A DNA stretch of 34,903 bases from a virus, in the IMG/VR virus record IMGVR_UViG_3300033402_000340. The stretch is one strand, 5' to 3'. The position numbers and the translations under genes are program-made. The notes beneath the pieces were generated by a model. It was given only the letters and a program-made list of their open reading frames with translations, was not told the DNA's origin and ran no database searches. The first letter of the stretch is position 1. Each line of letters begins with the position of its first letter. Below, one piece after another: positions 33,611-34,193 of this stretch.

Positions 33611-33658
33611 CATTGGGGCCATAAGTCTAATGGCAGGATCAGGCCTTTGCAAGGCTTG
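33611..33658 (+). pseudogene. tRNA 5' fragment (acceptor TGGGGCC, Gln-like D-arm, anticodon arm AGGCC TTTGCAA GGCTT) with no 3' half, directly upstream of a hairpin and the HNH gene
   Basis: No T-arm or 3' acceptor strand follows. Confidence 0.4.
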
Positions 33659-33699
33659 TGTCTAGATTTGCAATAATAAATCCATTGCAAATCTAGACA
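33659..33699. promoter_or_regulatory. perfect 16-bp hairpin TGTCTAGATTTGCAAT-AATAAATCC-ATTGCAAATCTAGACA whose 3' arm ends at the ATG of the HNH gene
   Basis: Read directly from the sequence. Confidence 0.6.
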
Positions 33700-34130
33700 T
33701 GGAGAAGAAATTTTGTTCTAAATGCGGAGAGACAAAATCTACGGATTCTTTCAATAAAAAGAAAGCAGGATATAGCAGCGTCTGTCGTGATTGCCAAAAG
33801 ATATATTGGTCAGAATGGTATTCTAATCCTTCTAATCGTAGAAAACATATTTCTCAGAGTAGAGAACACTCTAAAACCCGAGAACAAAAATTAAAAGAAA
33901 TGGTCCGAGAAGCCAAGAATAAACCTTGTGCCGACTGTAGACTAATTCACCCGTACTGGCGTATGCAATTTGACCACTTGCCTGGAACAGTCAAAATGGG
34001 CACCATTAATGAAATATGGAAACATTCTGAAGAAGTGGTTTTGGCAGAAATCCAAAAATGTGAGGTAGTTTGCGCTAATTGTCATGCAGATAGAACGTAC
34101 CATCGACAAATGACCAAAACGGGGTTGTAG
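33699..34130 (+). CDS. HNH homing-type endonuclease
   Basis: Zinc-ribbon N-terminus. HNH core FDHLPG...N...VVCANCHADRTYH. The stop overlaps the start of tRNA-Ala. Confidence 0.75.
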   Translation: MEKKFCSKCGETKSTDSFNKKKAGYSSVCRDCQKIYWSEWYSNPSNRRKHISQSREHSKTREQKLKEMVREAKNKPCADCRLIHPYWRMQFDHLPGTVKMGTINEIWKHSEEVVLAEIQKCEVVCANCHADRTYHRQMTKTGL

Positions 34131-34193
34131 CTCAATCGGGAGAGCGCGAGCTTTGCAAGCTCGAGGTTGCCGGATCGTTCCCGGTCAACTCCA
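34121..34193 (+). tRNA. tRNA-Ala (anticodon TGC) with non-canonical T-loop ATCGTTC (A54/U58 swapped)
   Basis: Acceptor GGGGTTG/CAACTCC, D stem GCTC/GAGC, anticodon arm CGAGC TTTGCAA GCTCG. Confidence 0.72.

Follow-up and report, generated by a model that had tools for sequence, protein, structure and literature searches.

A putative free-standing HNH homing endonuclease gene with a segB-like layout in the tRNA array of a huge phage

The transfer RNA (tRNA) arrays of phages are now seen as a counter-defence against host systems that cleave tRNAs, and the gain, loss and duplication of their members are therefore of current interest. To our knowledge, SegB is the sole homing endonuclease so far shown to remodel such an array. 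Here we describe a locus in a 34,903-nucleotide (nt) stretch of viral DNA, IMG/VR record IMGVR_UViG_3300033402_000340 (hereafter the window), where a gene of HNH endonuclease type lies between a fragment of a tRNA gene and an intact tRNA-Ala(TGC) gene. It suggests that a further nuclease family, widespread and not related to SegB, occupies the same niche, with features that would supply both of the brakes proposed for segB.

In T4, segB is a GIY-YIG gene within a tRNA cluster. It is transcribed as part of the pre-tRNA transcript, on which, as proposed in 2008, a hairpin (20.2 kcal) encloses both its Shine-Dalgarno (SD) sequence and its AUG, and RNase P, during maturation of the next tRNA, cuts between the last codon and the stop codon (PMC2330249). 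The enzyme cleaves within tRNA genes and is a driver of their duplication; in T6, the SegB-dependent amplification of tRNA-Tyr together with segB, by way of microhomology, has been observed experimentally (PMC13096335). Two further groups described in PMC2330249 are relevant: F-TflI, F-TflII and F-TflIV of T5, HNH genes in a tRNA cluster for which lowered expression through transcript processing is proposed, and I-TevI, I-TevII, I-TevIII and MobE of Aeh1, whose translation is controlled by start-site hairpins on read-through transcripts.

Read 5′ to 3′ on the plus strand, our locus comprises a tRNA remnant (33613-33658) with acceptor strand, D-arm and anticodon-like stem-loop, a perfect hairpin of 16 base pairs (bp) with a 9-nt loop (33659-33699), an HNH open reading frame (ORF) of 143 codons (33699-34130) and an intact tRNA-Ala(TGC) (34121-34194; called by ARAGORN, 61.5 bits in Rfam). 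A preliminary description of this DNA had the hairpin burying the HNH ATG, and so it does: the arms, 33659-33674 and 33684-33699, are complementary at 16 of 16 positions and the final paired base, A33699, is the first base of the ATG. It had likewise correctly placed the HNH stop within the first ten nucleotides of tRNA-Ala, the TAG at 34128-34130 being, as read from the sequence, U8-A9-G10 of that tRNA. The G+C fraction is 0.38 in the ORF and 0.29 in the hairpin, against 0.56-0.64 in the flanking tRNAs. HNH gene, hairpin leader and tRNA remnant together form a low-GC insertion beside an apparently resident tRNA-Ala(TGC). Paralogs and distant homologs are built in the same way: a 5′ remnant whose break falls at or past the anticodon arm, then a hairpin that runs up to the ATG, the HNH gene, and a full cognate tRNA from which the stop codon is taken. 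We consider it probable that this is a free-standing HNH homing endonuclease gene under segB-like control in the tRNA array of a huge phage.

Free-standing homing endonucleases with controls of the segB type are already known from phage tRNA clusters. Three aspects appear to be new: the different family, which is Zn-ribbon/HNH, widespread and often unannotated; the apparent linkage of its clades to single isoacceptors; and the recurring 5′ tRNA remnant, combined with a hairpin in the leader that is based on the anticodon loop of the cognate tRNA. Literature searches, whose coverage was incomplete, found no description of the niche of this HNH family, of isoacceptor-linked clades or of the remnant with its hairpin.

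With SegB of T4 and T6 the locus shares a position among same-strand tRNAs, a predicted initiation hairpin of about 20 kcal/mol and a stop at the 5′ edge of the next tRNA. We also count as likenesses the tRNA-gene targets, presumed in our case, the association with tRNA duplication and the sporadic occurrence among relatives. Although segB-like in layout, the gene lies outside the SegB (GIY-YIG Seg) family: SegB is of GIY-YIG type and its recognition motif, T-psi-C, is common to many tRNAs, whereas the window protein is Zn-ribbon/HNH with clades that appear to sort by isoacceptor. Also unlike SegB are the stop within the tRNA, at positions 8-10, and the 5′ tRNA remnant ahead of the gene. The T5 F-Tfl genes are similar in being HNH-type free-standing ORFs in a phage tRNA cluster (cited in PMC2330249). 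I-TevI, I-TevII, I-TevIII and MobE, as presented there, have a hairpin over the initiation region and obtain translatable mRNAs from a promoter in or next to it, but differ from the window in their intron-encoded or protein-coding contexts and in having mapped promoters. Integrative elements that target tRNA genes also leave a partial tRNA duplicate beside an intact copy; these, however, rely on integrases, and the piece they duplicate is usually from the 3′ part, whereas here there is no integrase, the 5′ half is duplicated and the element amounts to a single nuclease gene of 430 bp.

The encoded protein has an N-terminal Zn ribbon followed by an HNH domain of putative beta-beta-alpha-Me type. 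The positions C77xxC80, F91-D92-H93, N127 and C125xxC128-H129 vary little or not at all across alignments of 25 and 37 sequences, and two CxxC pairs of zinc ligands frame the catalytic HNH motif (D/H-H ... N ... H). Among PHROG HNH endonuclease families it matches phrog_2255 (E = 7.7e-26) and phrog_3106 (E = 3.4e-22), and homologs in isolated Streptomyces and Mycobacterium phages carry the annotation 'HNH endonuclease'. The Pfam entry PF01844 was not matched at E ≤ 0.01, NCBIfam gave nothing relevant, a sequence search of the PDB with the family profile produced no match below E = 0.07 and no GIY-YIG domain was detected with Pfam or PHROG. The gene may be described as a putative free-standing homing endonuclease of a tRNA-Ala(TGC)-linked clade.

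The family occurs on hundreds of viral contigs, in huge phages, in Streptomyces and Mycobacterium phages and in Myxococcus phage Mx1, and we surveyed 80 viral-contig loci carrying homologs (L numbers below denote loci or contigs). There are tRNAs within 1.5 kb at 41 of the 80, a same-strand tRNA starts between -24 and +12 nt of the HNH stop at 20 and the stop lies inside the downstream tRNA at 13, typically as the TAA of a Gln D-loop (-15) or as U8A9G10 (-10). The seven closest relatives, window included, cluster in a neighbour-joining tree, the homologs being 44-49% identical to the window protein. Within this Ala clade a tRNA-Ala(TGC) is called at the window, L121, L124, L135 and L136, where the HNH gene abuts or overlaps it; at L120 and L123 the ORF runs through degenerate sequences that resemble Ala(TGC) but are recognised by neither ARAGORN nor Rfam. 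The downstream tRNA-like sequences of L120, L123 and L092 are read by eye, found no Rfam match at E ≤ 0.01 and are counted as degenerate. Members linked to Gln(TTG) group loosely in the tree, and one 44% homolog (P0010) lies upstream of tRNA-Val instead. Each HNH clade seems to follow one isoacceptor.

In unrelated contigs, too, the HNH gene is preceded by a 5′ remnant of the tRNA species that follows it: L052 and L049 (both Gln-TTG), L046 (Arg-ACG) and L092 (Arg-TCT). In L046 there is a 17-nt direct repeat of the 5′ flank plus the first 12-14 nt of tRNA-Arg(ACG), in L092 (1498-1947) the 5′ hairpin arm equals the Arg(TCT) anticodon loop and in L120 and L123 the upstream remnants have TGC loops. 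In the isolated phage Mx1 (L138, OR576727.2) an unannotated 44% homolog at 48201-48623 lies between tRNA-Gln and tRNA-Lys and takes its TAG stop from the D-loop of tRNA-Lys. Because their stop codons lie inside tRNA genes, ORFs of this family are often missed, as in Mx1, or miscalled with tRNA-derived tails. The tRNA remnants beside HNH genes can equally mislead finders of tRNAs and of transfer-messenger RNA (tmRNA). Mx1 also has a tmRNA just upstream of its HNH homolog (L138 1-323).

Recurrence is equally visible within the genome itself. The contig L003, identical to the window, has four diverged phrog_2255 paralogs in its array, the gene described above among them. Each has a start-codon hairpin and is flanked on both sides by the same tRNA species, as two copies or as one copy with a remnant. 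At the Gly-linked paralog, tRNA-Gly(TCC) (L003 11415-11485) is followed by a perfect 34-nt palindrome of 17 bp (11486-11519) ending at the A of the ATG, then by the HNH gene, which stops inside a degenerate tRNA-Gly(TCC) (11942-12010; 29 bits). The Glu-linked paralog is preceded by tRNA-Glu(CTC) and a 5′ Glu(CTC) remnant (14325-14366), and another tRNA-Glu(CTC) begins one base past its stop. That remnant, which breaks off within the 3′ half of its anticodon stem, is recognised by Rfam as a 3′-truncated tRNA covering model positions 1-43, with only 11.3 bits. On the minus strand at 26317-26757, a third phrog_2255 gene lies between copies of tRNA-Asn(GTT) at 26282-26356 (weak, 32.6 bits) and 26786-26859, with its ATG in the loop of an 8-bp hairpin; the Glu and Asn paralogs have stems of 7-8 bp over or around the ATG. 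The preliminary description had mentioned similar HNH/tRNA overlaps around this gene and at 32422, and both are real: the former overlaps tRNA-Asn 26282-26356 antisense by 40 nt, and a second-family HNH gene (phrog_10822; 31940-32467, plus strand) overlaps tRNA-Asp(GTC) 32422-32494 by 46 nt.

A separate observation concerns the leader hairpin of the Glu-linked gene (L003 14397-14816), in which ATTCTAA/TTAGAAT corresponds to the Arg(TCT) anticodon-loop core rather than to that of Glu. The array of this phage has no called tRNA-Arg(TCT), although relatives have the order Cys-Arg(TCT)-Glu(CTC); the motif may be the trace of an earlier association with Arg(TCT).

The comparison with related phages bears on whether the gene arrived by insertion. 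Its nearest HNH relative is only 49% identical in a search of 5.8 billion proteins, and homologs of the EF-Tu of the window, 69-88% identical, lie on IMG/VR contigs of 190-437 kb with similar tRNA orders. What precedes tRNA-Ala(TGC) differs among these relatives. In the closest, L013 (EF-Tu 88% identical), it is a 73-residue Zn-ribbon ORF that also stops in the GTAG of the tRNA, ending …KTGP* as against …KTGL* in the window HNH; in L008 it is an HNH of another family and in L007 a reverse-strand ORF. Sporadic presence at a conserved locus coincides with anomalous composition, as expected of a free-standing homing gene. The earlier suggestion of a homing-endonuclease insertion that split or duplicated a tRNA gene is supported by the low-GC island, by the differing occupants and by the recurring layout. 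A further prediction concerned relatives with the same fragment and no HNH, which would have spoken against that suggestion; none was found. Instead, a 286-kb relative, L001, carries an orthologous remnant after tRNA-Gln(CTG), with the same 10-11-nt spacer, and there too an HNH gene follows, of another family and reading into tRNA-Gln(TTG).

The tRNA-Ala(TGC) of the window is 80% identical to that of L008 and 68-70% identical to the copies beside other clade members, so that the tRNA looks resident and the HNH gene mobile. The idea that HNH gene and tRNA-Ala travel as one cassette was rejected on the same ground, the tRNA being nearest to that of the phylogenetic relative L008.

The remnant itself lacks the T-arm and the 3′ acceptor strand. 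The Rfam tRNA model, applied to it both in context and in isolation with truncation allowed, gave no match at E ≤ 10, and we therefore regard it as a degenerate remnant and not a gene. It follows the upstream tRNA-Gln(CTG) (33531-33602, plus strand; ARAGORN, 54.3 bits in Rfam) after a spacer of 10 nt, and its anticodon-like arm has a 6-bp stem and the loop TTTGCAA. In a comparison with 795 tRNAs the acceptor and D part is nearest Gln and the anticodon arm nearest Ala(TGC). The preliminary description, which had put a Gln-like acceptor and D-arm together with an Ala(TGC)-like anticodon loop, was accurate as to both parts, but a chimera is probably unnecessary. The tRNA-Ala(TGC) genes of L121 and L030 have a GTCTAATGG-type D-arm like that of the remnant, and over its whole length the remnant matches them at 33 of 45 positions, against 29 of 45 for the Gln tRNAs of the window; the L001 fragment matches at 34 of 45. 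Since Ala(TGC) genes with the same D-arm match the whole remnant better, a single Ala(TGC) origin explains it at least as well as a chimera and, on these alignments, seems slightly better by a small margin.

The contrary possibility, that the remnant is a piece of a native tandem tRNA-Gln(TTG) or a Gln/Ala recombinant, is one that we take seriously while thinking it the less probable. Its 14-nt D-arm (GTCTAATGGCAGGA) is exactly that of tRNA-Gln(CTG) 85 nt upstream, the 5′ part is nearest Gln in 26 of the 30 top comparisons, tandem Gln(CTG)-Gln(TTG) pairs with spacers of 7-20 nt are common in other arrays and L052 has a Gln(TTG) remnant at the same place. The anticodon arm and the whole-length score nevertheless point to Ala(TGC), and every other remnant seen is cognate to the tRNA behind its HNH gene. 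When metagenomes were scanned for a tandem pattern of Gln-type D-arms, most of the matches were Gln tRNAs in intact tandem pairs, and L001 came up again. Fragments of tRNA genes also arise otherwise: in L126 (Ga0209211_10001947) and L127 (Ga0075900_103) a tRNA-Gln(TTG) is flanked by 5′ and 3′ tRNA fragments with no HNH gene, the former broken in the anticodon loop, the latter in the T-arm, and both separated from the tRNA by short inserts. This is a different route to tRNA fragments from that of the HNH-linked remnants.

That the remnant stops just past the anticodon arm, where tRNA introns sit, and that a group I intron occurs elsewhere in the array of L013 might suggest a split or intron-containing tRNA, in which the 5′ fragment would be a functional exon and the HNH gene would be carried by an intervening sequence or a group I intron. 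We give this hardly any credence: no Rfam intron (RF00028) is present in the window, the ORF takes up the whole interval, there is no 3′ exon with a GGCCCCA acceptor complement and the downstream tRNA-Ala is complete by itself. These facts effectively refute it.

The hairpin is the longest perfect inverted repeat of the window. Its predicted stability is -20.5 kcal/mol alone and -23.1 with G-U extensions, and the predicted fold of 33603-33740 has z = -3.3. A homologous hairpin leads the HNH gene of L121, where the stem is likewise closed by the A of the ATG, the 3′ arm reading GTTGCAAATCTTCGGTA|TG as against ATTGCAAATCTAGACA|TG in the window. The outer stems of the two differ by compensatory changes (TGTCTAG/CTAGACA versus ACCGAGG/CTTCGGT) around a conserved core, GATT(T)GCA/TGCAAATC, and TTGCA(A) inverted repeats occur in the leaders of L120 and L136 too. 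Stems of at least 8 bp ending at -2 to 0 of the ATG are present in 4 of 45 independent full-length homologs, an enrichment of p ~2e-6 over a background of 0.0019 per start, two of the four being related to each other.

Could the structure instead terminate transcription of the upstream tRNA operon, or be a site where RNase III or RNase E processes its RNA, the overlap with the ATG being incidental? It does stand directly after a run of tRNAs, and a perfect stem of 16-19 bp might conceivably be an RNase III substrate. However, the stem is AT-rich (5 of 16 pairs are G-C; tail TGGAGAAGAAA), the sequence 3′ of it is TGGAGAAG, which has no T-run, and a terminator scan of 32400-34903 did not list it; for the last two reasons the terminator reading, which the preliminary description had named as the alternative that would undo its proposal, fails. 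The same-strand array, moreover, goes on for at least another 9 kb and the closing A-of-ATG pair recurs in a paralog and in L121, so that we judge termination or processing as the function of the hairpin to be very unlikely.

Another possibility is that the inverted repeat acts as DNA, being an operator or mimic of the homing site at which the HNH protein represses its own gene, as I-TevI represses transcription at its own promoter. TTGCAA, the core of the Ala(TGC) anticodon loop, is present in both arms of the hairpin and occurs 4 times in 507 nt at the locus, against 18 times in the whole 34.9 kb. In the leaders of the window, L121, L120 and L136 this core is kept in sequence and not merely in pairing. 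The palindrome of the Gly paralog holds TTCCAA/TTGGAA, the Gly(TCC) anticodon-loop core, beside Gly(TCC) genes, and the 5′ arm of L092, described above, holds that of Arg(TCT). Yet TTGCAA may simply have been inherited from the tRNA remnant, the hairpin of the Glu-linked paralog lacks the Glu loop sequence and the outer stem co-varies between window and L121, which argues for pairing rather than a fixed binding sequence. Such an operator, which may coexist with an RNA hairpin, thus seems to us unlikely. By eye, an extended -10-like string, TGCAATAAT, can be made out at 33669-33677; a sigma-70 promoter scan found none upstream of the HNH ORF.

We return to the homing endonuclease under segB-like control, for which the following course of events may be proposed. 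The nuclease would recognise the tRNA-Ala(TGC) gene, probably at the near-palindromic anticodon arm around TTGCAA. Repair of the break would have placed the HNH gene, the duplicated 5′ piece of the tRNA being the scar and, at the same time, left-hand homology for later homing. The gene would be transcribed within a long pre-tRNA transcript, on which the hairpin of -20 kcal/mol would sequester the AUG so that little nuclease is made; transcripts starting inside the hairpin, or cut in it, would be translatable. Such translational gating is something we infer, because of the precedents of T4 segB and I-TevI (PMC2330249). As a second brake, RNase P, whose RNA the phage itself encodes (32798-33134, plus strand; full-length, bacterial type A, 287.6 bits in Rfam), may cut between 34120 and 34121 at the 5′ end of tRNA-Ala and detach the stop codon, so that the processed HNH mRNA would become a non-stop message as proposed for T4 segB.

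Several points weigh against this proposal. Cleavage, homing, co-transcription, translational occlusion, the RNase P cut and the targeting of tRNA-Ala are all steps that we infer. The intact downstream tRNA-Ala should still hold the presumed target, which leaves self-immunity unexplained. Near-identical alleles lacking the HNH gene were not seen among the contigs found: the four public contigs with the exact HNH protein are all 100% identical to the window, and the relatives found through EF-Tu, at 70-80% DNA identity and rearranged, are too diverged for an empty-site comparison. Megablast against isolated phages gave a single kind of match, 72 nt within a tRNA. Nor do all homologs have a hairpin abutting the start: many have instead a TATAAT-like box near the ATG or a tRNA abutting it. 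In L071, L076 and L092 the box lies at the junction of loop and 3′ arm, 8-9 nt upstream of the ATG, a placement that recalls the promoters in or beside the hairpins of the I-TevI group. Finally, the missing SD was dropped as an argument, since many ORFs of the window have no obvious SD and its absence at the HNH gene is not distinctive.

One ORF outside the tRNA array also has its start in a hairpin: in 6834-7508 (224 codons; no PHROG or NCBIfam match) the ATG lies in the 5′ arm of an AT-rich hairpin of 18 bp (94%) at 6829-6867.

A nuclease of this kind might be kept mainly for the benefit of the phage, its cuts in tRNA genes driving duplication and turnover and so evading defences that target tRNAs; duplicate tRNAs and remnants would then be by-products of a SegB-like segmental amplification. 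Every HNH gene of the array has copies or remnants of a single tRNA species on its two sides, RtcB is also encoded in the window and the SegB-dependent amplification in T6 offers a precedent (PMC13096335). The tRNA copies are, however, diverged and often degenerate, with no ladder of identical units, which suggests old scars rather than recent tandem amplification, and sporadic distribution and low GC fit a selfish element. We regard such a benefit as possible but doubtful, while noting that it and a selfish nature are not mutually exclusive.

The anticodon-loop motifs seen in leaders, TTGCAA (Ala-TGC), TTCCAA (Gly-TCC) and TTCTAA (Arg-TCT), invite a more general speculation, to which we attach little weight. 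Each HNH lineage could be specific for one isoacceptor, inserting at its anticodon arm and leaving a 5′ remnant, which would make these genes a main driver of duplication, decay and reshuffling in the tRNA arrays of huge phages. The leader hairpin, derived from the palindrome of the target anticodon loop, would then be a mimic of the homing site that sets nuclease expression, either through the nuclease or through loop-loop pairing with the cognate tRNA (UUGCAAA).

The window is part of a huge-phage genome with a tRNA array. From 25881 to the end of the window all tRNA genes are on the plus strand, 18 being in the window; in L003, with 38 tRNAs, the array continues on that strand for at least 9 kb more. 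Among the tRNAs are genes for EF-Tu and endonuclease VII, RNase P RNA and several HNH genes, and upstream of the array are genes for RtcB and an ATP-dependent DNA ligase. Downstream of tRNA-Ala comes tRNA-Gln(TTG) (34283-34354, plus strand), which in the arrays of other phages is usually paired in tandem with Gln(CTG). The permuted 'tmRNA*' that ARAGORN reports at 33123-33756 is a false positive: it covers the hairpin as well as three tRNAs, and with Rfam no tmRNA is found in that interval. EF-Tu (30609-31886) lies inside the array with tRNA-Asp copies on both sides, the upstream one at 30567-30639; several viral contigs of 250-437 kb have EF-Tu genes 79-88% identical to it. Behind its stop are two perfect 12-bp hairpins back to back, at 31887-31914 (GC-rich) and 31916-31957, the latter containing the first codon of the second-family HNH ORF, a TTG at 31940.

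The literature search found no report of a phage-encoded RNase P RNA; another is present in L008, a 252-kb viral contig (3552-3904; 263 bits), which also has a tmRNA (16222-16576). In L013 the group I intron (4329-4559; 76.6 bits) lies between tRNA-Gln(CTG) and tRNA-Asn and has no counterpart in the window. Between tRNAs of the window there are four copies, 68-79% identical, of a 63-nt repeat (26953-27015, 27408-27470, 27693-27755 and 27931-27993) that matches no Rfam family. It has a co-varying internal hairpin (GGCTCTGAAAAGAGCC, GGTCCTGAAAGGGACC, GGCCCTGAAAGGGGCC) and many copies occur in L013 (5530-6400).

A conserved non-coding stretch at 34613-34733, without a tRNA or tmRNA call, is 77% identical to L008 1254-1378 and L012 4759-4837; it terminates in a T-arm, with a partial tmRNA match at 34718-34734 (16.6 bits). 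Another tRNA wreck of the array lies at 34358-34471 (36.3 bits), with an Ala-like acceptor, GGGGUUU...AAACUCCA, a 6-nt anticodon loop and a D-loop that holds a 48-nt insertion including a T-arm-like piece.

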